Shown here: piece by piece, positions 20,100 through 64,000 of the stretch
Numbering within the stretch: the stretch's first letter is position 1
Layout of the letters: each line of letters begins with the position of its first letter
From: an uncultured delta proteobacterium
GTDB taxonomy: Bacteria > Desulfobacterota > Desulfobaccia > Desulfobaccales > 0-14-0-80-60-11
Length of the DNA stretch: 64,000 bases
Assembly: GCA_963812015.1 (NCBI GenBank)
Contig: CAWETI010000003.1
Location: 576,001-640,000, forward strand
Reading direction: 5' to 3'
Made by a program: the position numbers and the translations under genes
The notes under the pieces: generated by a model
What the model was told of the DNA's origin: nothing
The model's input: only the letters and a program-made list of their open reading frames with translations
Database searches by the model: none

Positions 20100-20999
20100 A
20101 TGATGAAAATCAGGTCTCCGCACGCCGTCGATCGAGACCCGCAAACCGGCACGTTGATCAGACTCCGGGGACTTTATCCTTCCCTGAAAACCGCCTTAAG
20201 GAAGGTGGCCGACGTCATCCTCAGGCAGCCGGAAATGGTGATCTACGCCTCGGTAAATGAAGTGGCGGCCGAATCATTGGTTAGTGAAGCTACCGTGATG
20301 CGCTTCTGTCGTATCCTGGGCTTTAAGGGTTTCCAGGATTTCAAGATCGCCCTGGCCCGGGAGATGGTCATCACCACCGCGCCCCTCCACGAAGAGGTGG
20401 GGGGCGGAGACGATGCCGCCATCATCCGCACCGTATTTCAAACCAACCGCGCCGCCCTGCAGGATACTTTGGAAATTCTGGAGACCGGAGCGATGCAGGA
20501 GGCGGCCCGGATTCTCCTCAACGCCCGTCAGGTCATGGTGGTGGGGGTGGGGGGCTCCGGTCCGGCCGTGACCTATGCCGGCAACCGCTTCCTCCTGCTG
20601 GGTCTGAAGGCCTCTCTGTACACCGACTTTTCCCTGATGTTGATGGCGGCCTCATTGCTGTCCAGGGAAGACGCGGTGCTGGCCATCTCCAACCTGGGAA
20701 CCACCCGGGAAGTGGTGGAGACGGTGGGGTTAGCCCGGGAAAAAGCAGCCCGGGTCATGTGCATCACCAATAATTCCCTTTCACCCCTGGCCCGGGCCTG
20801 CAAGCCGGCCCTGATCACCGCGTCCCGGGGGGTGACTTTGCCTGAGGAGGCCGTTGCCTCCCTAACTTGTCAAATATCGATCCTCGACGCCCTGTTCGCC
20901 CTGATGGCGGCGGCCCCGGAGGCGCAGGCCCGGGCGACCCTGGAGGGGATGGAGAAGGCCCTGATCACGGGGGGAGTGCGGCGTGAACCCGCCAAATAG
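20100..20999 (+). CDS. MurR/RpiR family transcriptional regulator
   Basis: VSEATVMRFCRILGFKGFQDFK HTH plus an SIS domain (GVGGS, ISNLGTT). Confidence 0.92.
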   Translation: MMKIRSPHAVDRDPQTGTLIRLRGLYPSLKTALRKVADVILRQPEMVIYASVNEVAAESLVSEATVMRFCRILGFKGFQDFKIALAREMVITTAPLHEEVGGGDDAAIIRTVFQTNRAALQDTLEILETGAMQEAARILLNARQVMVVGVGGSGPAVTYAGNRFLLLGLKASLYTDFSLMLMAASLLSREDAVLAISNLGTTREVVETVGLAREKAARVMCITNNSLSPLARACKPALITASRGVTLPEEAVASLTCQISILDALFALMAAAPEAQARATLEGMEKALITGGVRREPAK

Positions 21000-21067
21000 C
21001 CTTGCCGGTGCCCGGGACGCCACCCAGGGCTAAGTTCCTTAAAAAAAAACCGCGCCCAGGACCAGCC

Positions 21068-21709
21068 ATGTCAAGCCACCAGTTGAGACAGGACATCGTG
21101 CGCATCTGCCGGATGCTGCACCGAAAAAATTACCTCGCCGCCACCGACGGCAATGTCAGTGTGCGCCTGGGAGACCAGGTGCTCACCACCCCCAGCGGGA
21201 TTAACAAGGGACTCATGGAGGCGGACCAGGTGATCACCGTGGACCTGGAGGGCAGGGTGGTCATGGGTGAGGGGCGGCCCACCTCGGAGATCCGGATGCA
21301 CCTTTTGGCCTATGAGTTGCGCCCGGATGTTACGGCCGTGGTGCACGCCCATCTACCTTACGCCACGGCCTGCACCCTGGCGGGGGTTTCCCTGCTGGAA
21401 CCCATCCTGCCGGAGGTGGTGATTACCCTGGGGGGGATTCCCACCACGCCCTATGCCACCCCCGGCAGCGAAGCAGTGCCGGAGGCCATCCGGGGTTTTA
21501 TCCGGGAATATGACGCCCTGCTCTTATCACGGCACGGGGCCATGACGGTGGGGCGGGACGTGACGGACGCCTACAACAAGATGGAGAAGCTGGAACACAC
21601 GGCCCGGGTCATGCTGGCGGCGCGACTCCAGGGACCGGTGACGCCGTTGCCGGCGGCGGAGGTTGAGAAGCTGCGGCGAATGGGGGAAAAGTATAAGGGA
21701 GGAGGGTGA
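21068..21709 (+). CDS. Class II aldolase/adducin family protein (FucA-like)
   Basis: DGNVSVR, TPSG, TSEIRMH, VVHAH and LLSRHG motifs. Confidence 0.92.
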   Translation: MSSHQLRQDIVRICRMLHRKNYLAATDGNVSVRLGDQVLTTPSGINKGLMEADQVITVDLEGRVVMGEGRPTSEIRMHLLAYELRPDVTAVVHAHLPYATACTLAGVSLLEPILPEVVITLGGIPTTPYATPGSEAVPEAIRGFIREYDALLLSRHGAMTVGRDVTDAYNKMEKLEHTARVMLAARLQGPVTPLPAAEVEKLRRMGEKYKGGG

Positions 21710-50145: not shown

Positions 50146-50164
50146 GGGGCGGATTTTAGGAGAA

Positions 50165-50308
50165 TTTGGGGGAAGGGGCTAGGGGCGAACGGCCCCTACC
50201 CCTTCCCCCAAACCCCCATCCCCAACCCCTTACAGGGGGTTGGGAGGAGAGTCCAAGGGGAGGGCGGAGGAAATGACTTATGAAAAAACCGCCGGCCCTC
50301 CCCTCAAA
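50165..50308. repeat. Full three-hairpin G/C-tract repeat
   Basis: Hairpin, then cccaacccct-tacag-ggggttggg, then a second hairpin; lies between the convergent proC and nadC. Confidence 0.8.
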
Positions 50309-51485: not shown

Positions 51486-51605
51486 GGCGGGCAGTGCCCG
51501 CCCTACGTTATCGGCACAGGGGAGACGCCTGTGCCATCATCTTATGCGGGTTGGGTGGGGGGTGTGGGAGGAGGGCAGGGACGAAGTTCCTGGCCCTCCC
51601 CCCAC
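51486..51605. repeat. Half REP (ggcgggcagtgcccgccctac) plus reverse-oriented G/C-tract hairpin copy
   Basis: Elements at 51486-51506 and 51541-51605. Confidence 0.65.
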
Positions 51606-51611
51606 ATCTTC

Positions 51612-54269
<2,658 letters not shown>

Positions 54270-54289
54270 GGTGATCCTTGTAGAAGATA

Positions 54290-54370
54290 TTTGGGGAAGG
54301 GGGCCAGGTGCCGACGGCCCCTGCCCCCTTCCCCAAACCCCATCCCCCAACCCCCATAAAGGTTGGAGGA
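54290..54370. repeat. G/C-tract hairpin repeat copy
   Basis: tttggggaagggggccagg...cctgcccccttccccaaa plus tail. Confidence 0.75.
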
Positions 54371-54464: not shown

Positions 54465-54505
54465 TTGACAGTGGACCGGTAAATTTGGTATGACCATCTG
54501 GTCAT
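54465..54505 (+). promoter_or_regulatory. TetR promoter and palindromic operator overlapping the start codon
   Basis: TTGACA at 54465; atgacca-tc-tggtcat perfect palindrome at 54490-54505. Confidence 0.7.
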
Positions 54506-55154
54506 GAGTGAAGAACCGGTCCTTTCAACCTTTCGGCACCTGCCTGCGGACAAACAGGAAAGGGTGCTGACTGCCGCCCTGGCGGAGTTTGCCGAACAGG
54601 GTTATCAGCAGGCTTCCCTGAACCGCATGGTGGCCCAGGCGGGGATCGCCAAGGGGTCGCTCTACCAGTATTTTCCCAACAAAGAGGGGATGTTTCATTA
54701 CATCTTCCAGTACGCCCTCAAGATGGTGCGGCGGACCCTCACCGCGGTTAAGGAAGAGACCCGGGAAGAGAATTTTTTTGTCCGGCTGGAAAAATCCCTC
54801 CTGGCGGGGGTGGCCTTCTCCCGGGAGCACCCCCGGATTTTCAGCCTGTATCTGAAGATCCAGTTCGATAAAAATGTGCCGTTCCGGGGAGAGTTTCTGG
54901 CCGCGGTGCGGCGCCACGCCACGGAATATTTCGCCTCCCTGGTGCGCCGGGCCCAGAGCCGGGGGGAACTGCGGCCCGGAGTCCCCAAAGACGCGGTGCT
55001 GTTTCTCCTGGATGCGTTGTTCGACCGGTTTCTCCAGGCCGTGGCGGTCCCGGCCCTGGACGTCACCCTGGGCCTAAACCAGGCCACGGATGCGACCATT
55101 CATAAACACGTCCGGGAACTCATCGGCCTCCTCCAGGATGGCCTGATGGCTTGA
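54504..55154 (+). CDS. TetR/AcrR family regulator
   Basis: AEFAEQGY..AS...AGIAKGSLYQYFPNKE motif. Confidence 0.93.
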   Translation: MSEEPVLSTFRHLPADKQERVLTAALAEFAEQGYQQASLNRMVAQAGIAKGSLYQYFPNKEGMFHYIFQYALKMVRRTLTAVKEETREENFFVRLEKSLLAGVAFSREHPRIFSLYLKIQFDKNVPFRGEFLAAVRRHATEYFASLVRRAQSRGELRPGVPKDAVLFLLDALFDRFLQAVAVPALDVTLGLNQATDATIHKHVRELIGLLQDGLMA

Positions 55155-55284
55155 GATGGCGATCGGTTTTTTCCACTATTTTAACCGATAAGAACGGCAT
55201 AGGGAGGGAGGAGCAGAAAGCAGACAATCGCCCGAGCCGGTTCCCCAAGAAGTAAACCTGCGGCTGTTGGACAACTGGAGACAG

Positions 55285-55782
55285 ATGGCAATTAATTTCA
55301 AACAACAATCATCACTGCTCGAACTGCTCTGTATCATAGTGCTGGCAATTCTTGGCGTGGCTATTTCATATTATTATGATTTTATTGAGGAAATGTATAT
55401 ATGGTCCGTACTTCATAAATCACACCTTATTGACGAGTTAGTCGTACTCCTTATCGTCCTGACCTTTGGTCTGGCTATTTTTTCCTTTCGGCGATGGCGG
55501 GAACAGATTAGAAAACACTCTGAATTGAAACGATTAATGTCGGAAAAAGAAAGGATGATCGTAGAACTTCACGAGGCCACCGAAAAAATCAAAATTTTAA
55601 AGGGCTTCTTGCCTATTTGCTCCCATTGTAAAAAAATTCGTAACGATGAGGGTTATTGGCAGCAATTGGAGAAATATATCAGTGAACACTCTGAGGCCCA
55701 ATTCAGTCATGGGATTTGTCCAACCTGTGCGGAGAAACATTATTCTGAGTTATTACCGGGAAAGGATAGTTCGTTGAAATGA
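55285..55782 (+). CDS. Two-TM protein with coiled coil and C-terminal ICxxCKKIR...SHGICPxC module
   Basis: GGAG RBS; lower GC than the flanks. Confidence 0.8.
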   Translation: MAINFKQQSSLLELLCIIVLAILGVAISYYYDFIEEMYIWSVLHKSHLIDELVVLLIVLTFGLAIFSFRRWREQIRKHSELKRLMSEKERMIVELHEATEKIKILKGFLPICSHCKKIRNDEGYWQQLEKYISEHSEAQFSHGICPTCAEKHYSELLPGKDSSLK

Positions 55783-55901: not shown

Positions 55902-57008
55902 ATGGCAGGTATCCAGGGTTTCACTGATAAACGACTTTATCCCATCTATGACAAAGTGGCATCTCAAGAGCGTCTCTCCCGGGAAGACGGTTGCGCCCTG
56001 TTCGAGAGCCCCGATCTTTTGGGGGTGGGGCGTCTGGCCCAGATAGTGCGGGAGCGCCTCCATGGCCGCCGGGCTTTCTATATCTATAATCAGCATATCA
56101 ACTACTCCAATATCTGTATCAATGGCTGCAAGTTTTGCGCGTTCGGGCGCAAGGCGGGAGAACCGGGGGCCTATGAGATGAGCCTCCCGGAGATTTTTGA
56201 CAAGGTGGAGGCAAGGGCGCATGAGCCGATCACTGAAATTCATATCGTGGGCGGCTGTCATCCCGATCTGCCATTCGCTTACTATGTGGATATGCTCCGG
56301 GGCATCAAGGCCCGGCGTCCGGAGGTCCATCTCCAGGCCTTCACCGCCGTGGAGGTGGCCCACCTGGCCCAGAAGGCCGAAATGAGCGTGGCCGATACCC
56401 TGTCGGCCCTGAAAGAGGCGGGCCTGGGGTCCCTCCCCGGCGGCGGGGCCGAAGTCTTCAGTCCCCGGGTGCGTTCCAGCCTCTGCCCGGAAAAGCTCTC
56501 CCCCGAGGGCTGGGTGGAAGTGGCTCAGGCGGCGCATCGGCTGGATCTCAGCACCAACGCCACCATGCTCTATGGCCACATGGAGAGCGTGGCGGAGCGG
56601 GTGGACCATCTGGTTAGACTGCGCGAAGCCCAGGACGAGACCGGGGGATTTTTGGCCTTCATTCCCCTGGCCTTTCACCCCGCCAACACCGGTCTCAGCG
56701 ATCTTACCGGCCCCAGCGCCATCGACGATCTCAAGACCCTGGCCGTTTCTCGGCTGATGCTGGACAATTTCCCCCACATCAAGGCGTTCTGGGTGATGTT
56801 GGGGCCGAAGCTGTCCCAAATCTCCCTGTGTTTCGGGGTGGATGACGTGGACGGCACGGTGATGGAGGAGCGGATCACCCACATGGCCGGGGCCCAGACG
56901 CCCCAGGGCCTGACCCGCTCCCAACTGCGAGCCCTGATTCGGGAGGCGGGCTGCGTGCCGGTGGAACGGGACACCTTGTACGGGGTGATTGCCGATGAGT
57001 GGCGTTGA
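55902..57008 (+). CDS. mqnE: Aminofutalosine synthase MqnE
   Basis: NYSNICINGCKFCAF, EIHIVGG, NATMLYGH, FIPLAFHP, HIKAFWVM and ERITHMAGA motifs. Confidence 0.92.
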   Translation: MAGIQGFTDKRLYPIYDKVASQERLSREDGCALFESPDLLGVGRLAQIVRERLHGRRAFYIYNQHINYSNICINGCKFCAFGRKAGEPGAYEMSLPEIFDKVEARAHEPITEIHIVGGCHPDLPFAYYVDMLRGIKARRPEVHLQAFTAVEVAHLAQKAEMSVADTLSALKEAGLGSLPGGGAEVFSPRVRSSLCPEKLSPEGWVEVAQAAHRLDLSTNATMLYGHMESVAERVDHLVRLREAQDETGGFLAFIPLAFHPANTGLSDLTGPSAIDDLKTLAVSRLMLDNFPHIKAFWVMLGPKLSQISLCFGVDDVDGTVMEERITHMAGAQTPQGLTRSQLRALIREAGCVPVERDTLYGVIADEWR

Positions 57009-58050
57009 GCACGGCTTGCAGGCCAAGTTGGCGGCCGGGGCGCGGCTGGATTTTCAAGAGGCCTGCCGGCTATGGGACCTGGAACTCCTGACCCTGGGAA
57101 ATTGGGCGGACCGGGTGCGCCGGCGTCTCAACCCCGAGCCCCGGGTTACCTTTGTCATTGATCGGAATATCAACTACACCAACATCTGTGTTTCGGGCTG
57201 CCGTTTCTGCGCCTTTTACCGGCCTCCCGGGTCCGCCGACGGCTACGTCCTGGCGTGGGACACCCTGGCGGCGAAGCTCACGGAACTCAAAACCCACGGC
57301 GGCAGCGGGGTTCTGCTCCAGGGCGGCCTCAACCCCGAGTTGCCCCTGGACTACTACCTGGAACTGGTCGATTTTATCCGGGGCTCCGGCCTGGCGGTGC
57401 ACGGCTTTTCTCCCCCGGAAATTTTTTATCTCGCCGAAAAAAACGCTCTTAGCCTGGAAGAACTGATTCAGCGCCTGATGGACGCAGGGTTGAGCTCCAT
57501 CCCCGGGGGCGGGGCCGAGATCCTGGTGGATCGGGTGCGGCGCCAGATCTCGCCGCAGAAATGCTCCAGCTCCCAGTGGCTGGAGGTCATGGCCGCGGCG
57601 CACCGGCTGGGCTTATCGACCAGCGCCACCATGATGTTCGGACACCTGGAGACCCGGGCGGAGCGGATCGAACACCTCTTCAGGATTCGGGAACTCCAGG
57701 ACGACACCGGCGGCTTCACCGCATTCATCCCCTGGACCTACCAGCCCGGGGGCACAAACCTGACGGGCGAGACCCTGGGCGCGGTGGAATACCTAAAAAT
57801 GCTGGCCATCTCCCGGCTGGTGCTGGACAACGTGCCCCATCTCCAGGTCTCCTGGGTGACCCAGGGGCCCAAGGTGGCCCAGGTGGCCCTGAAATTCGGA
57901 GCCGACGACTTCGGCTCCACCATGCTGGAAGAAAACGTGGTGGCCGCCGCCGGGGTGGGCTTCCGCCTGACGCGGCCCGAAATCGAAACGCTGATCCGCC
58001 AGTCCGGTTACGAGCCGCAGGTGCGGGATCACCGATACAATGTCGAGTGA
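56995..58050 (+). CDS. mqnC: Dehypoxanthine futalosine cyclase MqnC
   Basis: DRNINYTNICVSGCRFCAFYR, LLQGG, SATMMFGH, FIPWT, SWVTQG and MLEENVVAAAG motifs. Confidence 0.93.
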   Translation: MSGVEHGLQAKLAAGARLDFQEACRLWDLELLTLGNWADRVRRRLNPEPRVTFVIDRNINYTNICVSGCRFCAFYRPPGSADGYVLAWDTLAAKLTELKTHGGSGVLLQGGLNPELPLDYYLELVDFIRGSGLAVHGFSPPEIFYLAEKNALSLEELIQRLMDAGLSSIPGGGAEILVDRVRRQISPQKCSSSQWLEVMAAAHRLGLSTSATMMFGHLETRAERIEHLFRIRELQDDTGGFTAFIPWTYQPGGTNLTGETLGAVEYLKMLAISRLVLDNVPHLQVSWVTQGPKVAQVALKFGADDFGSTMLEENVVAAAGVGFRLTRPEIETLIRQSGYEPQVRDHRYNVE

Positions 58051-58052
58051 AT

Positions 58053-58244
58053 TTCTGGGGGGAGGGCCAGGGCCAACGGCCCTGCCCTCCCCCCAGACCC
58101 CCCTCCCAACCCGTATAAGGGGTTGAGGAAGACGGGCTGAAAGCCCGCCTTCCTCAATTTGAAGAATAAAAATTAAGGGATTGGGGGAGGGGGTAAGGGC
58201 CCCTTACGAAAAAACGGAAAAGCCCTTAGCCCCCTTCCCCCAAA
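58053..58244. repeat. Cluster of G/C-tract hairpin repeats
   Basis: Elements at 58053-58127, 58128-58152 and 58181-58244. Confidence 0.75.
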
Positions 58245-58258
58245 CAACCATAACAACC

Positions 58259-59125
58259 ATGAAACCGAAAATTGCGGTCATAGCCCGGGTGGGGGCGCAT
58301 AAGGCCTTGGAGGTGGCGGGGTTGAGGCCGCGCCGCACCGAGGTTTATGCCACGCCCTATGGCGACAGTCGGCCGGTGCATTGGTTCCGCCAGGGGGGGA
58401 TCGATTTTGTGGTCCTGTCCCGGCACGGGGAGGCGGGTTACGAGATTTCGGCCCCGTTCATCAATGCCCGGGCCAATCTCTATGCCTTGAAGGCGTTGGG
58501 GGTGGCCAAAATTCTGGCCTGGGTGGCCCCGGGCTCGCTCAGGGAGGAGATGGCCCCGGGGGACCTGGTGGCGCCCCACGATGTCTTGGATGAAGGCCGG
58601 GGCGGCCCCCACACCTTTTATCCCGGGGTGGGGTGGGGTTTTATAAGGCACAACCCCCTGTTCTGCCCGGAGTTGAGGGCAGCGATGTTGGGAGCGCTGG
58701 TAGATGTTCCCTTTGTGGTGCATGGCCGGGCGGTCTATGTGGCCACTACCGGGCCGCGCCTGGAGACCGCGGCGGAAATCCGCAAGTTCGGTTGCCTGGG
58801 AGGCGATCTGGTGGGCCAGACCCTGGTCCCCGAGGTCTTTCTGGCCCGGGAACTGGAGTTGTGCTACGCGGCCCTGACCTATGTGGTGAATTATGCCGAA
58901 GGCCTGGTGGATCGGCCCTATCAGCCGGGGGTGCTGTTTGAAGGGCTGGCCACCCCGGAGGAAGCGGCAAGGGTGCGGGCGGTGGAAGCGGCCTTTCCGG
59001 ATCTGGTCCTGAGGCTGCTGCCGGCGATGGCCGGCACGGCGCGGCAATGCCCCTGCCCCCGGCTCATGGAACGCTACCGCCTCCGGGGCGATATCAGTGA
59101 CGACTGGCGCACCTGGGTAAGATAA
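58259..59125 (+). CDS. MTAP/PNP family nucleoside phosphorylase-like protein
   Basis: TPYG, SRHG, ANLYALK, GSL, PLFCPELR, GPRLETAAE, VGQT..PE...AREL and VNYAEG motifs. Confidence 0.88.
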   Translation: MKPKIAVIARVGAHKALEVAGLRPRRTEVYATPYGDSRPVHWFRQGGIDFVVLSRHGEAGYEISAPFINARANLYALKALGVAKILAWVAPGSLREEMAPGDLVAPHDVLDEGRGGPHTFYPGVGWGFIRHNPLFCPELRAAMLGALVDVPFVVHGRAVYVATTGPRLETAAEIRKFGCLGGDLVGQTLVPEVFLARELELCYAALTYVVNYAEGLVDRPYQPGVLFEGLATPEEAARVRAVEAAFPDLVLRLLPAMAGTARQCPCPRLMERYRLRGDISDDWRTWVR

Positions 59126-59148
59126 GTTGAGGCTAATAAAAATATCAG

Positions 59149-59281
59149 CTGAGGGAGGGGGCCAGGGGCACCCGCCCCTGCCCCCTCCCTCAGGCTCCCT
59201 CCCCCAACCCCTTACAGAGGGATGGGAGGGGTGTTTGAGGGGAGGGCGGGGGACTTTCCGTCCCCCGGTCCTCCCCTCAAA
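59149..59281. repeat. Full three-hairpin G/C-tract repeat
   Basis: Same layout as 50165-50308. Confidence 0.8.
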
Positions 59282-59289
59282 GAGAAAAT

Positions 59290-60489
59290 ATGATCGCGCA
59301 CGTAAGTAAATGGGTTTTGCCAGTAGATCAGCCTCCCATCCGGGACGGGGCGGTGGTGGTGGCCGGGGACCGGATCGCCGCGGTGGGGCCCGCGGATGAA
59401 GTTTTGTCCGGGTTCACGGGGTTGATCTGCGAACACGGTCATGGCGCCATCCTGCCCGGGGTGGTGAACTGCCACGTCCATCTGGAGTTTTCCGCTCTGG
59501 CCGGGCGGGTGGCCCCCCGGGCGCGCTGGGAGGACTGGCTGGACGCCACCCTGGCGGCCTACGGGGCCCTGGCTCCGGAAGAGGTGGAGGCCGGTATCGG
59601 CCGGGGCATTGACGCCTTGTGGCGGAGCGGCGCGGTATTGGTGGGGGAGGTCACCAACACCGGGGCTTCCTGGCCGCACCTGGCGCGGGGTCCCTTGTCA
59701 TACCACCTGTTCTATGAGTGCCTGGGGTTCAACCTGCTGGAACGGTTTGATCTTCCGGAGTTATTTCCCTTTTTCGGCCGGCCCGAGGTCGCGGCCGCGG
59801 CCTGGGTTTCGGCCGCGGCCCATGCCCCTTATTCCGTGTCCGCCGCTTTATTCCGGGCCGTAGATCAGTGGAACGCCGTCCGACAGGGCCTCCAGATGGT
59901 GCACCTGGCGGAATCCCGGGCGGAATTGGACTTTCTGGCCAAGGGCAACGGGTTTTGCGAGGGCTTGCTGAAACGCCGGGGCCGCTGGGCGCCGGATTTT
60001 CAGCCTCCCGGGGTGAGCCCCCCGGCTTACCTCAACAGTCTGGAATTCCTGGGCTCCCGGACCCTAGCGGTCCATGGGGCCTGGCTCAATTCTGAGGATT
60101 GCGAGCTTTTAGCCGGCACCGGGACCTGGCTGGTGCTGTGCCCCCGGGCCAACCGGTACACCGGGGCCGGGATGCCGCCGGTGCCGGAGTTGCTCCAGGC
60201 GGGGGTGAACCTGTCCCTGGGCACCGACTCCCTGGCGGGCAACCGGGACCTGAATCTGTTCGGGGAAATGCTCTGGCTCCAGCAAAATTATCCCGCCTAC
60301 CCCGGGGATCTCTGGCTGCGCCTGGGGACCCTGAACGGCGCCCGGGCCCTGGGACGGGACCGGGACTTCGGCAGTCTGGAACCCGGGAAACACGCGGCCC
60401 TGGGATTCATTCCCCTGATGGAGAGCGGGGAATTTTGGGGCGAGCTGTTTAGGGCCGGGGCGGCGGGGAAGTGGCGCTGGCTGGGATGA
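59290..60489 (+). CDS. Amidohydrolase, probable aminofutalosine or 5'-deoxyadenosine/MTA deaminase
   Basis: NCHVHLE, HAPYS, HLAES, HG and LGTDS motifs; mqn context. Confidence 0.85.
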   Translation: MIAHVSKWVLPVDQPPIRDGAVVVAGDRIAAVGPADEVLSGFTGLICEHGHGAILPGVVNCHVHLEFSALAGRVAPRARWEDWLDATLAAYGALAPEEVEAGIGRGIDALWRSGAVLVGEVTNTGASWPHLARGPLSYHLFYECLGFNLLERFDLPELFPFFGRPEVAAAAWVSAAAHAPYSVSAALFRAVDQWNAVRQGLQMVHLAESRAELDFLAKGNGFCEGLLKRRGRWAPDFQPPGVSPPAYLNSLEFLGSRTLAVHGAWLNSEDCELLAGTGTWLVLCPRANRYTGAGMPPVPELLQAGVNLSLGTDSLAGNRDLNLFGEMLWLQQNYPAYPGDLWLRLGTLNGARALGRDRDFGSLEPGKHAALGFIPLMESGEFWGELFRAGAAGKWRWLG

Positions 60490-60610: not shown

Positions 60611-61444
60611 ATGATGGCCAAGGCCCGATTGGGGCGCATTGCGTATCTCAACGTGCTGCCCATCTATTTCGCCCTGGAAAACCTCTTCGGCGAAAACGGC
60701 TTCCACCTGGTGCGGGGCACCCCGGCGGAGCTCAACGCCTTGATGCGCCGGGGCGAGGTGGACCTGGGCTCCATCTCCGCCATGGAATATGGCCGCGCCT
60801 GGCGGGATTATTTCCTGCTCCCCGACCTGTCCATCAGTTCCAAGGGGGCGGTGGGCAGCGTGCTCCTGTTCAGCCGGGTGCCGTTTTCCCGACTGGACGG
60901 GCGGACCATCCGGGTGAGCGCTGCTTCGGCCAGCGGCGCGGCGCTGGTCAAGGTCCTGATGGCCAAACTTTTTGAGGTGCAGCCCCGCTACGAACAGGGC
61001 CAACTGGCCGATGCTTCCCTTGCGGATGCTGCCGCAGTCATGGCCATCGGGGACGAGGCCTTGCGCCTGAAAGCCGCGGGGGCCATGCCCTTTGAATTGG
61101 ACCTGGGGAAGGCCTGGCAGGAACTCACCGGCCTGCCGTTCGTGTTCGGGGTCTGGGCCGTGCGCCGGGACTTTACCGCAGCTCACCCCGCGGACACCGC
61201 TATCCTGCACCGCCTGCTGCTCCGCTCCCGGGATTGGGGCCTGGGGTCGTTGGCGGAGTTGAGCCGGATCGCCGCGGCCCCCTTCGGCATGGCCCCGGCC
61301 CAAATTCTGGCGTATTTCCATCAGCTCAATTTCTTCCTGGGCCCGGAACACGAAGAAGGTCTGGCCACCTTCTTCCATTATCTGTATAACCTGGGGGAAT
61401 TGGACGAGGCGCCGCGGCTGGAGTATTTTGGGGGAGGGGGCTAA
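60611..61444 (+). CDS. mqnA: Chorismate dehydratase MqnA
   Basis: IAYLNVLP, PAELN, VGSVLL, IGDEAL and DLG..W...TGLPFVFGVW motifs. Confidence 0.9.
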   Translation: MMAKARLGRIAYLNVLPIYFALENLFGENGFHLVRGTPAELNALMRRGEVDLGSISAMEYGRAWRDYFLLPDLSISSKGAVGSVLLFSRVPFSRLDGRTIRVSAASASGAALVKVLMAKLFEVQPRYEQGQLADASLADAAAVMAIGDEALRLKAAGAMPFELDLGKAWQELTGLPFVFGVWAVRRDFTAAHPADTAILHRLLLRSRDWGLGSLAELSRIAAAPFGMAPAQILAYFHQLNFFLGPEHEEGLATFFHYLYNLGELDEAPRLEYFGGGG

Positions 61445-61558
61445 GGGCACCCGCCCTTACCCCCTCCCCCAATCCCCCTCCCCCAATCCCTTAAAGGGGG
61501 ATGGGAGGGGAGTTTGAGGGGAGGGTGGGGGACGCGAGTCCCCCACCCTCCCCTCAAA
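61426..61558. repeat. Full three-hairpin G/C-tract repeat overlapping the mqnA stop
   Basis: The last codons of mqnA (FGGGG*) are supplied by the repeat arm. Confidence 0.8.
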
Positions 61559-61576: not shown

Positions 61577-63022
61577 ATGGGCTATCGAAACTTACAAGAT
61601 TTTATCGCCCGGCTGGAAAAGACCGGGGAGTTGGTGCGCATCAAGGAGCCGGTGAGCCCGTATCTTACCATCACCGAGATCACCGACCGGGTGTGCAAGG
61701 CCGGGGGGCCGGCCTTGTTGTTCGAGGAGGTGCCGGGCTACGACATGCCGGTGTTGATGAACGCCTTCGGGTCCATGCGGCGCATGTGTCTGGCGTTGGA
61801 GGTGGAGTCCCTGGACGACATCGCCACGGACCTCCTGAGCTTCATGGAGGCGGAAGCCAACACCCTGATGAAGAAGCTCAAACTCATTCCCAAACTGGCC
61901 CGCCTGGGCCGGATGTTCCCCAAAGAGGTGGGGAAAGCCCCGTGCCAGGAGGTTATCCTCACAGGCGAGGACGCGGATCTGGGCAAGGTGCCGGTCCTGA
62001 CCTGCTGGCCCGATGACGGCGGCCCCTTCATCACCCTGCCGGTGGTGTTCACCCATCATCCTGAGACCGGGCGGCGCAACGTGGGCATGTACCGCCTCCA
62101 GGTCTATGACGCCCGGACCACGGGCATGCACTGGCATGCCCATAAGGGCGGGGCCCAGCACTATCGGGTGGCGGAATCCCGGGGGGAGGCCCTGCCGGTG
62201 GCGGTGGCCATCGGGCCCGACCCCGCGGTGACCTATGCGGCCACTGCGCCCCTGCCGGAGGATATTGATGAGATCCTGTTCGCCGGGTTTCTCAGGGGAG
62301 AGCCGGTGGAGATGGCGCCCTGCGTCACCCAGCCCTTGAGCGTGCCGGCGGCATCCCAGATCGTTTTAGAGGGTTACGTTGAGCCGGGGGAGAGGCGGAC
62401 AGAAGGCCCCTTCGGCGACCACACCGGCTACTACTCCCTGGCGGATGACTACCCGGTGTTCCACCTCACCGCCATCACCCGGCGGCGGCACCCCGTTTAC
62501 CCCGCCACCATCGTGGGGCGCCCCCCCATGGAAGACTGCTTCATGGCCAAGGCCACGGAGCGTATCTTCTTCCCCCTGATGAAAAAGACGCTGCCGGAGA
62601 TGGTGGACCTCAACCTGCCGGTGGAAGGGGTCTTCCACAACCTGGCCTTTATCTCCATCGACAAGCGCTATCCCGGCCATGCCCGCAAGGTGATGCACGC
62701 CATCTGGGGGATGGGACAGATGATGTTCACCAAGATCATCATCATCTATGACCGGGACGTGGACGTGCAGGACCTGTCTCAGGTGCTGTGGCGGTTAGGG
62801 AACAACGTGGACCCGCGGCGGGACGTGGTGTTCGCCGACGGGCCGGTGGACGCCCTGGATCACGCCTCGCCCCTGCCCCGCTACGGCTCCAAGATGGGGA
62901 TCGACGCCACCCGGAAATGGCCTGAGGAAGGGTTCACCCGCCCCTGGCCCGAGGTGATTGTCATGGACCCGGAAATCAAACGCAAGGTGGATGAACTGTG
63001 GCCGCGCCTGGGGCTGGCATGA
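61577..63022 (+). CDS. UbiD-family menaquinone biosynthesis decarboxylase (MqnL-type)
   Basis: RNVGMYRLQ, EGPFGDHTGYY, GRPPMED and DALDHAS...GSKMGIDAT motifs. Confidence 0.93.
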   Translation: MGYRNLQDFIARLEKTGELVRIKEPVSPYLTITEITDRVCKAGGPALLFEEVPGYDMPVLMNAFGSMRRMCLALEVESLDDIATDLLSFMEAEANTLMKKLKLIPKLARLGRMFPKEVGKAPCQEVILTGEDADLGKVPVLTCWPDDGGPFITLPVVFTHHPETGRRNVGMYRLQVYDARTTGMHWHAHKGGAQHYRVAESRGEALPVAVAIGPDPAVTYAATAPLPEDIDEILFAGFLRGEPVEMAPCVTQPLSVPAASQIVLEGYVEPGERRTEGPFGDHTGYYSLADDYPVFHLTAITRRRHPVYPATIVGRPPMEDCFMAKATERIFFPLMKKTLPEMVDLNLPVEGVFHNLAFISIDKRYPGHARKVMHAIWGMGQMMFTKIIIIYDRDVDVQDLSQVLWRLGNNVDPRRDVVFADGPVDALDHASPLPRYGSKMGIDATRKWPEEGFTRPWPEVIVMDPEIKRKVDELWPRLGLA

Positions 63023-63624
63023 ACCGCTATGTGGTGGCCCTCACCGGGGCTTCGGGCATGATCTATGCCCGGGAGCTGTTGAGTTATTTTGCCGGCCGTC
63101 CGGACCTGGAATTGCACGCGGTGATCTCCGGGGCCGGGGAACAGGTGTTGGACCTGGAGTTGGGGCTCAAGCCGGCGGAGTTGGCCCCCGGGGCCATCTG
63201 GCACCGGGTGGATGACTTCACCTCAGGCCTGGCCAGCGGCTCTTTCCGGGCCCGGGCCATGGTGGTGGCGCCGTGCTCCATGGGCTCCCTGGGGGCCATC
63301 GCCCAGGGGGTGGGCCGCAACCTGATCCACCGGGCCGGTGAGGTCTTTCTCAAGGAGCGGCGGCCCCTAATTCTGGTGGTAAGAGAAACTCCTTTGAGCC
63401 TCATCCATCTGCGCAACCTGGTCCAGGCCTCGGAGGCGGGGGCCACCATCTTTCCGGCCTGTCCCGGTTTCTATCACCGGCCCCAAGATCTTACCGAACT
63501 GGCCCGCCAGTTTGCCGGGCGCATCCTGGATCACCTGGGGCTGGAGCACCGGTTGACCCGGCGCTGGGGGGAGGAGGAGAAAGCAGGGGTCAGGGGTCAG
63601 GGGTCAGGGGTCAGGGAAAAATAG
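63019..63624 (+). CDS. ubiX: Flavin prenyltransferase UbiX
   Basis: TGASG, ASGS, APCSMG, LKERR and RETPL motifs. Confidence 0.93.
   Translation: MNRYVVALTGASGMIYARELLSYFAGRPDLELHAVISGAGEQVLDLELGLKPAELAPGAIWHRVDDFTSGLASGSFRARAMVVAPCSMGSLGAIAQGVGRNLIHRAGEVFLKERRPLILVVRETPLSLIHLRNLVQASEAGATIFPACPGFYHRPQDLTELARQFAGRILDHLGLEHRLTRRWGEEEKAGVRGQGSGVREK
63584..63616 (+). repeat. Heptamer tandem repeat (CAGGGGT)x4.7 inside the ubiX 3' end
   Basis: Direct reading; encodes GVRGQGSGVRE. Confidence 0.85.
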
Positions 63625-63638
63625 AGTTTTTTGTAGCT

Positions 63639-64000
63639 ATGGGACGATTATTCCGCACTATCATTGAACTGTTGGAGATGATCAAGGTCGGCCACAGCGT
63701 CCTGGCCCTGCCCTTCGCCTTCATGGGGGCCGTGATGGCGGCTCGGGGTTTGCCGGACGGCCGGACCCTGTTCACCATCATGGTGGCCATGGTGGGGGCC
63801 CGGAGCGCCGCGATGGCCTTCAATCGCTTGGCGGACGCCCGCATTGACGCGGCCAATCCCCGTACCGCCGACCGGGCCCTGCCCGCGGGCAAGATCAGTC
63901 GGCGGGCCACCATTCTGTTCATCGGGGCGAGCGCCGTCCTCTTCATGGCGGCGGCGGCCCAACTCAACCGGGTCTGCTTCGCCCTGTCTCCCCTGGCCCT
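63639..64000 (+). CDS. UbiA-like polyprenyltransferase (MqnP-type), truncated by the window end
   Basis: LEMIK..HS.LALPFA and ARSAAMAFNRLADARIDAANPRT..RALP motifs; absent from the ORF track because no stop falls inside the window. Confidence 0.9.
   Translation, partial: MGRLFRTIIELLEMIKVGHSVLALPFAFMGAVMAARGLPDGRTLFTIMVAMVGARSAAMAFNRLADARIDAANPRTADRALPAGKISRRATILFIGASAVLFMAAAAQLNRVCFALSPLA

Follow-up and report, generated by a model that had tools for sequence, protein, structure and literature searches.

In the futalosine pathway to menaquinone, MqnD removes the remaining sugar carbons through ring opening, isomerisation and a retro-aldol reaction. MqnC takes a hydrogen from C4' and joins C4' to the ring (accessible text of PMC8210684), and the remaining three sugar carbons must then leave. 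The pathway is described as the more widespread and possibly older menaquinone route in the available portions of PMC3914697 and bioRxiv 10.1101/2025.09.17.676790. In Negativicutes and further Bacillota, a gene of family PF01048 that clusters with mqnC/mqnE or mqnEAC and does not occur with mqnD was named mqnZ (locus MHY_27640) by Ravcheev and Thiele in 2016 and predicted to substitute for MqnD (PMC4746308, accessible part); in the same text Megamonas still has internal steps missing, and both gut genomes with MqnZ in its Table S1 lack mqnD, mqnB, mtnN and mqnX. Here we report on a locus in a stretch of 64,000 nucleotides (the window) from an uncultured delta proteobacterium of the order Desulfobaccales, phylum Desulfobacterota (GCA_963812015.1, contig CAWETI010000003.1, positions 576,001 to 640,000), where an MqnZ-like gene, encoding P0001, lies between mqnC and an amidohydrolase gene, encoding P0002.

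Our data suggest that the locus very probably belongs to menaquinone synthesis and that one enzyme, P0001, probably cleaves a futalosine-type nucleoside to free hypoxanthine, in a variant of the futalosine pathway that needs neither MqnB nor MqnD. What is new is that an MqnZ-like gene is read as covering both the MqnB and the MqnD step; the kind of gene and its layout were predicted before. In the literature searched, which lay mostly outside subscription journals, we found neither an assay of an MqnZ-type protein nor a proposal that it covers both steps, and a general remark that promiscuous methylthioinosine (MTI) phosphorylases could accept futalosine appears in the accessible text of PMC6302742. 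A sequence-only reading of the window had proposed that a degenerate 6-oxopurine phosphorylase with a deaminase replaces MqnB; on the best-supported reading of the present data, that idea captures one half of what the enzyme does and the MqnD proposal of 2016 the other. Of the 202 PF02621-positive genomes of the source phylum, 34 (about one in six) carry MqnA alone together with an MqnZ-like gene and would score as having an incomplete pathway. If the gene accounts for both gaps it closes them, gives an annotation marker and predicts new chemistry or intermediates.

The operon order mqnE-mqnC-[MTAP-fold gene]-[deaminase]-mqnA-ubiD-ubiX-ubiA, read earlier from the letters, agrees with profile scans (Table 1), and the two genes under study are intact open reading frames. 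The PF02621 protein of the cluster is MqnA and not MqnD, as it matches the chorismate dehydratase 7ahr at E 7e-39 and the MqnD structures 2czl/3a3u only at E 2e-4, and since it is the only PF02621 gene of the source genome (G000, 99.86% complete), MqnD was not found there. The lack of MqnB, first noted for the window, extends to the whole genome, in which the best score was 30 bits on the MqnB profile TIGR03664 (cut-off 124.7; other genes, not P0001) and 25.5 bits on the MTAN profile TIGR01704 (cut-off 73.8). None of its five PF01048 genes is MqnB or MTAN: besides P0001 there are an inosine/guanosine purine nucleoside phosphorylase (PNP) scoring above cut-off, two uridine/DeoD-like genes and one HpnG-like gene, the last three labels coming from sequence reading and not from a profile scan. 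The genome also encodes MtnA and two MtaD-like deaminases (G000:C3:211099-212085, 256825-258165 and 1337877-1339259), and a canonical MTAP or MTAN was not found in it. On PRK09045 the two deaminases reach 418 and 471 bits, whereas P0002 reaches 128. Salvage of 5'-methylthioadenosine (MTA) and 5'-deoxyadenosine in this genome may proceed via deamination by the MtaD-like enzymes and an inosine-type PNP.

The same 401 genomes of the source phylum were searched four times, two PF02621 genes being taken as MqnA plus MqnD; the genomes include kin and are hence not independent data points. An MqnZ-like gene is present in 39 of them ("carriers", spanning 10 families), comprising 33 with a member of the P0001 subfamily, one (G284) with a split copy and five with a gene of a second, distant clade, which in four of the five stands after mqnE-mqnA-mqnC. 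The 158 genomes that have two PF02621 genes and the 118 whose MqnB passes its cut-off include no carrier, but 34 of the 44 single-PF02621 genomes are carriers. The anti-correlation with mqnB that had been predicted is thus seen in full, with 0/39 carriers passing the MqnB cut-off (G035 has a weak TIGR03664 match, E 3e-15). The weak match in another carrier, G454, was rejected as MqnB, being HpnG/MTAN-like and under all cut-offs. Ten single-PF02621 genomes are not carriers: seven have a strong MqnB match, and in all five of those with coordinates shown the PF02621 gene, probably MqnD, adjoins mqnB. Of the other three, G223 has a completeness of 86%, G354 shows nothing beyond a weak partial match, and G289 is a real exception. 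A split match in G289 turned out to be a canonical MTAP beside apt.

Most of the genomes with two PF02621 genes (145/158) have a TIGR03664 match. MqnD is present and a match at E 1e-10 absent in 13 genomes of the source phylum (G004, G044, G047, G230, G297, G301, G318, G338, G350, G356, G363, G365 and G396) and in 19 Planctomycetota, where another futalosine nucleosidase probably exists. None of these 32 genomes is a carrier (0/13 and 0/19), and the MqnZ-like gene therefore tracks the absence of MqnD more strictly than that of MqnB. Among 83 Planctomycetota genomes, searched with the P0001-subfamily query and not with that of the second clade, six are carriers: none of the 42 with two PF02621 genes, four of the 11 with one and two of the 30 with none. 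Moreover, MqnC from carriers and non-carriers interleaves in the tree, which requires a minimum of 5-6 changes of state, so that being a carrier does not go back to one inherited event.

The pathway link proposed earlier is also borne out by gene neighbourhoods. Genes of the mqn set adjoin the P0001-type gene at 44 of 49 GTDB loci, all 44 from one clade; the other five belong to Nitrospinota, Planctomycetota, Chloroflexota (two) and one Bacteroidales record. Of 580 metagenome matches the best 80 were taken, 39 of which scored as P0001-subfamily members and 41 as canonical MTAP/MTIP. Among the former, mqnA/C/E are adjacent at 15/39 (10 of the 33 that are not of the ARV type defined below) and a deaminase alone at 7/39, and among the latter mqnA/C/E are adjacent at 0/41. 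We also examined 20 wide regions drawn from the 33 first-pass carriers of the source phylum, and the gene lies inside the mqn cluster in all eight of ARV type. At L120, L125, L130, L276 and L277, where mqn genes are not nearby, the deaminase still accompanies it. In the compact operons ubiD-ubiX-ubiA-mqnE-mqnA-mqnC-gene (L116, L128 and L131) there is no other candidate between mqnC and the MqnZ-like gene, and no extra shared gene was seen.

The second clade (30-34% identity) has the layout mqnE-mqnA-mqnC-gene and named members in Selenomonadaceae, Syntrophomonadaceae, Acetonema and Desulfofundulus; because of this layout and the Bacillota members of those groups it is probably the MqnZ family. 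P0001 resembles MqnZ by context and exclusion, being a PF01048 gene clustered with mqnC/mqnE and found only in genomes without mqnD (0/158 and 0/42), and its orthology with MqnZ is putative. It differs in that MqnZ was given the MqnD step only, with no deaminase partner (mqnX = 0) and no residue analysis in the accessible part of PMC4746308. P0001 and a Selenomonadaceae protein from the probable MqnZ clade are about 31% identical, a value no higher than with canonical MTAPs, and each of the two clades has remodelled the phosphate site in its own way.

The AlphaFold2 model of P0001 (mean confidence, pLDDT, 91) matches MTAP/MTIP structures best, with TM scores of about 0.75-0.81, and shares with MTIP (PDB 3ozb) and MTAP the fold, the RHG motif and the E-T of the PRxET motif. 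It falls under every curated MTAP, MTIP and PNP cut-off, with 147 bits against 223 for MTIP (NF006599) and 171 against 275 for MTAP (TIGR01694), and has no match to TIGR03664 or TIGR01704 at E 0.001; the Atlas comparison confirms PF01048 only. P0001 shares with MqnB and MTAN the superfamily PF01048 and the bond proposed to be cleaved, and it is mutually exclusive with MqnB in the genomes searched, but it belongs to another branch of the superfamily, and MqnB goes with MqnD whereas the P0001-type gene never does. All the motifs quoted in the sequence-only reading are present, namely IARVG (8-12), RHG (55-57), WVAPGS (88-93), GPRLET (165-170), QT (187-188) and VNYA (210-213). In the 120 closest homologues listed, of which the nearest named are Desulfobaccales, R10, R55, H56, E169, Q187, T188, N211 and E214 are each conserved in 120/120 and V11 and V89 each in 119/120, which rules out a pseudogene or decaying gene.

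E169 and N211 form the Glu plus Asn pair, which we take to read 6-oxopurines and which P0001 has in common with MTIP; their equivalents are found in 118/119 and 119/119 members of the second clade. The 6-oxopurine specificity signature proposed in the sequence-only reading is thus supported. The adenine-reading Asp-x-Asp motif of MTAP is replaced by N211-Y-A213, and the local sequence is NYAEG, as against NxAAG or DYD in MTIP and MTAP. Unlike MTIP, P0001 lacks an intact GG[ST]G phosphate loop (ARVG) and the pocket His contributed by the neighbouring subunit (F128), and it has gained R130 and a C-terminal DWxxW tail, the latter common to its subfamily. Throughout the subfamily the E169/N211 pair and E214 are present, both pocket histidines are lost and R130 is invariant. 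The 5'-pocket His of MTAPs, placed there on the basis of the accessible text of PMC5147791, is F128 or Leu, and in each clade the same loop has a new invariant Arg, which would suit the aryl carboxylate of futalosine.

With respect to phosphate, the available part of PMC5147791 lists S12, R54, H55, A88 and T207 of Schistosoma mansoni MTAP as hydrogen-bonding residues and G11 and N87 as contacts. By alignment P0001 retains four of the five bonding residues (R55, H56, A90 and T188); Ser/Thr at 11 and Thr at 89 are gone and Arg10 is gained. The earlier statement that the altered positions help to bind phosphate does not hold for the Met of "MT", which binds ribose via its main chain and is no phosphate ligand (same source and part). 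The changes from G11/S12 (S. mansoni numbering) to R10/V11 define an "ARV" clade, made up of the source order and a family designated f32 (support 100) and nested in the trees among "GGS" members of the subfamily; in f32 T188 is changed to Asn in addition. GGS-type relatives have mostly intact phosphate ligands, with Gly for Ala, and those directly behind mqnC mostly retain the site (GGS, RH, S, MT). Within the ARV clade, QT occurs alongside MT and MN. A QT/ARV-type degenerate signature was rejected as a family marker by these two observations, and as the degeneracy of the site is real but lineage-specific, hydrolysis, which had been tentatively read from it, does not follow, and water versus phosphate is not settled by it. 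An MTAP that lacks the second Thr still works efficiently as a phosphorylase, and MTAP can hydrolyse adenosine without phosphate (PMC5147791, accessible text and Table 2). In the trees the second clade, the P0001 clade and the canonical set each form one side of a branch with no reliable root, the PunA outgroup being a long branch (the long rows L001_PunA, L056, P0166 and P0145 were left out of the second tree), and a single origin of the P0001 and second clades does not follow from them.

P0002 has the HxHLEFS motif and a complete amidohydrolase metal site, with the metal/catalytic residues H62, H64, H205, E208, H262 and D313 invariant, and an invariant Trp83. In these features and in full-length matching it resembles the aminofutalosine deaminases (MqnF/MqnX) 3v7p/4m51 and 2imr, which we take to be the enzymes characterised by Goble 2013, and 7lkj, which is so named in the PDB. 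The aminofutalosine deaminase profile NF006269 is its sole strong full-length NCBIfam match, at 128 bits against a cut-off of 320, with linked relatives at 125, 203 and 225 bits. The top match of a profile of 13 linked deaminases is 4m51/3v7p, and 2imr and 7lkj too are matched over their full length; MTA deaminase structures score nearly equally (238 vs 241 bits) but in two pieces. P0002 is, by its resemblance to these proteins, a probable aminofutalosine deaminase, as suggested before, and its step is one already known.

We propose that MqnE would make aminofutalosine, that P0002 would deaminate it to futalosine, and that P0001 would cut hypoxanthine off a futalosine-type nucleoside, making MqnB and MqnD unnecessary; the deaminase-then-phosphorylase logic is that of Pseudomonas MTIP. 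The purine-reading pair and the company of a deaminase point to a hypoxanthine nucleoside, and together with the tracking of MqnD absence they fit a cleavage that bypasses MqnD. Three versions can be envisaged. (a) MqnC might cyclise the nucleoside first and P0001 then remove the base together with the three sugar carbons, so that the two replaced steps, base loss and fragmentation, become consecutive on one substrate; this is possible, if doubtful. (b) Phosphorolysis might release the sugar as a 1-phosphate that could not be opened by MqnD; once MqnC has acted, the housekeeping isomerase MtnA and a class II aldolase would yield dihydroxyacetone phosphate (DHAP) and dihydroxynaphthoate, in the manner of the 5'-deoxyadenosine shunt proposed in PMC6302742 (accessible part); we hold this to be a little more doubtful. 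(c) The enzyme might act twice, as nucleosidase before MqnC and as aromatising enzyme after it, which seems less likely again. Direct support was gained by neither (a) nor (b). In its general form the proposal is a rewired futalosine pathway across several phyla, with one repurposed MTAP-fold enzyme for the unrelated MqnB and MqnD, working by step reordering (cyclisation, base release, sugar fragmentation) or by a phosphorolytic branch that recovers the ribose carbons as DHAP, and with two distant clades in the role, maybe recruited separately; we would put this somewhat below an even chance.

Several observations weigh against a dual role of P0001. Retro-aldol chemistry by this fold would, to our knowledge, be without precedent. 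In MqnC we saw neither a residue diagnostic of carriers nor a separate carrier clade (27 vs 29 rows; the best column, G260, gives 18/27 vs 4/29), and this speaks against the altered substrate of MqnC that (a) and (b) imply; this comparison gave no signal of co-evolution and has flaws, in that the G289 row was labelled carrier, four of the 29 controls have a weak or no MqnB match, one outgroup row is a mis-picked MqnC and the tree is a quick version. MtnA is present in 41/41 genomes searched (40 being carriers or single-MqnA genomes), looks ordinary and is unlinked to the cluster, and since it is found in 4/4 MqnB+MqnD controls too it was rejected as a specific partner. A class II aldolase was found in four of five carriers and is missing in one. 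Mqn genes and deaminase are both missing near 17/39 of the metagenome subfamily loci, and mqn neighbours were found at 0/12 of the GGS-type loci in the wide regions. Many relatives thus do lie outside mqn clusters, as the sequence-only reading had considered damaging, yet their genomes carry mqn genes: in three GGS-type genomes checked, mqnE, mqnC and one MqnA (confirmed as MqnA in two) lie elsewhere. Five carriers have no PF02621 gene and hence no MqnA, one Planctomycetota carrier (G435) has MTAN over cut-off, and G289 has mqnE/A/C with MqnB, MqnD and MqnZ-like gene all not found. Finally, 7/11 single-PF02621 Planctomycetota have no MqnZ-like gene, five of them rechecked at lower stringency, and the gene is not a universal answer to missing MqnD. 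The seven (G413, G416, G426, G430, G443, G466 and G486) resemble G289 in having one PF02621 gene with neither MqnB nor MqnZ-like gene found, and either are incomplete assemblies or represent a further variant; in G416 a deaminase adjoins mqnA.

The alternative that survives best, though we regard it as rather unlikely, is that only MqnB is replaced, futalosine being hydrolysed to ordinary dehypoxanthine futalosine (DHFL) and the MqnD step left to an unlinked protein or to spontaneous chemistry. The nucleoside-cleaving fold, the E169/N211 pair and the deaminase link all fit futalosine, an unchanged MqnC is expected if DHFL is still its substrate, the phosphate site is remodelled in two of three lineages (in the second clade the phosphate Arg is Met in 119/119 and an acidic residue lies beside the site in 119/119), and one MTAP hydrolyses adenosine phosphate-free in the accessible text of PMC5147791. 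MqnB is indeed absent in carriers, as first proposed, but such a plain swap leaves the coupled loss of MqnD in every carrier without a reason. A drop-in substitute would be expected in the 32 MqnD-positive genomes without MqnB match, none of which has the gene, and the compact operons show no extra shared gene.

Replacement of MqnD only, the role given to MqnZ by Ravcheev and Thiele, would have the enzyme aromatise cyclic DHFL while another nucleosidase removes the base. The absolute exclusion with MqnD in both samples, the usual position after mqnC and the MTAN of one carrier agree with it, and the many MqnD genomes without detectable MqnB imply that cryptic nucleosidases exist. Against this role, cyclic DHFL lacks a purine although the Glu/Asn pair that reads one is invariant and a deaminase accompanies the gene; moreover MqnB and MTAN were not found in the source genome, and we consider this quite unlikely.

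Salvage, in which the deaminase and an MTI/5'-deoxyinosine phosphorylase would clear radical-SAM by-products and feed MtnA and the aldolase, the place in the operon reflecting the 5'-deoxyadenosine output of MqnC, is very unlikely. MTAP and MTIP are the best NCBIfam matches of P0001, MTA deamination followed by phosphorolysis is a known route (PMC6302742, accessible part), MtnA and aldolase are present, and the gene is the only MTAP-family gene in 14/14 genomes of the source order searched and in 3/4 f32 genomes, which keeps this explanation alive. It is weakened by the separate canonical MTAP-family gene in 15/15 GGS-type and 4/4 second-clade genomes tested and by the exclusion with mqnB and mqnD, which salvage does not predict; in addition, the methylthio-pocket histidines are gone in P0001, and the source genome encodes two MtaD-like deaminases away from this locus as well as an inosine-type PNP that passes its cut-off. 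P0001 may have a salvage side activity. That these genomes do not make menaquinone in this way, a truncated mqnA/E/C set serving a different product or imported intermediates, is highly improbable given the prenyltransferase and menaquinone-type decarboxylase pair in the same operons, even though MqnA is missing in five carriers and an NMT1-type ABC transporter follows ubiA in two f32 loci.

Table 1. Features of the locus and related genes (window positions unless a locus is named)
Feature	Position	Strand	Evidence and remarks
TetR-family regulator	54504..55154	+	PF00440; related loci, those of f32 among them, likewise have it 5' of mqnE
mqnE, aminofutalosine synthase	55902..57008	+	TIGR03700 506 bits, cut-off 435
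mqnC, radical-SAM cyclase	56989..58050	+	TIGR03699 472 bits, cut-off 428
MTAP/MTIP-fold, MqnZ-like P0001	58259..59125	+	288 aa; PF01048; AlphaFold2 model; residue tables; E169/N211 signature, phosphate site partly remodelled
Amidohydrolase P0002, probable aminofutalosine deaminase (MqnF/MqnX type)	59290..60489	+	399 aa; NF006269 128 bits full length, cut-off 320
mqnA, chorismate dehydratase	60611..61444	+	sole PF02621 gene of genome
ubiD-like menaquinone decarboxylase (MqnL)	61577..63022	+	TIGR03701 655 bits, cut-off 496
ubiX-like flavin prenyltransferase (MqnM)	62998..63624	+	TIGR00421 and NF004685 above cut-off
ubiA-like prenyltransferase (MqnP)	63639..64000	+	continues past window edge, 286 aa in genome; window fragment MqnP-like
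Class II aldolase, genome's only one	21002..21709	+	PF00596; under all named NCBIfam cut-offs; unlinked to mqn cluster; candidate partner under version (b) alone
PF13505 beta-barrel genes	L098:9204-9794, L105:7024-7788, L107:8947-9579, L093:1991-2815

With respect to other loci, the f32 clusters at L095:12718-15409 and L097:12807-15498 (genomes G360 and G312, in which no PF02621 gene was found) are without mqnA and ubiX, and the transporter behind ubiA is of the NMT1/SsuA type; it could import the MqnA product or another intermediate. MqnA is also missing in G199, G258 and G026. In several genomes the PF13505 outer-membrane beta-barrel gene stands immediately 5' of the gene of GGS type, and one ARV-type cluster has it right behind ubiA. 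A Chloroflexota record (L056:7998-9400) has a tandem of two divergent PF01048 genes, with a Met aminopeptidase gene and a reading frame resembling class II aldolases behind them, and the one PF02621 gene of its genome adjoins mqnE. The copy at L053:8001-8780 is frameshifted, about 69% identical to P0001 and located at a contig end; the record is titled Bacteroidales, its genome has no PF02621 gene, and the copy is probably a misassembly or mis-binned fragment.

Within the window, a role of the TetR regulator in the mqn operon is presumed, and a 171-aa membrane protein without a match in the Pfam scan is encoded between tetR and mqnE (55267-55782). The sole class II aldolase gene is preceded by an RpiR-family regulator (20100-21709 together), both behind a CCA-type nucleotidyltransferase, and the pair recurs in G088 (L258). 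Finally, GC-rich palindromic repeats resembling repetitive extragenic palindromic (REP) elements, about 60-105 nt long and 65-87% alike, lie between many genes (50164-50272, 51541-51620, 54289-54363, 58040-58122, 59146-59257 and 61425-61558) and flank the P0001 gene on both sides.

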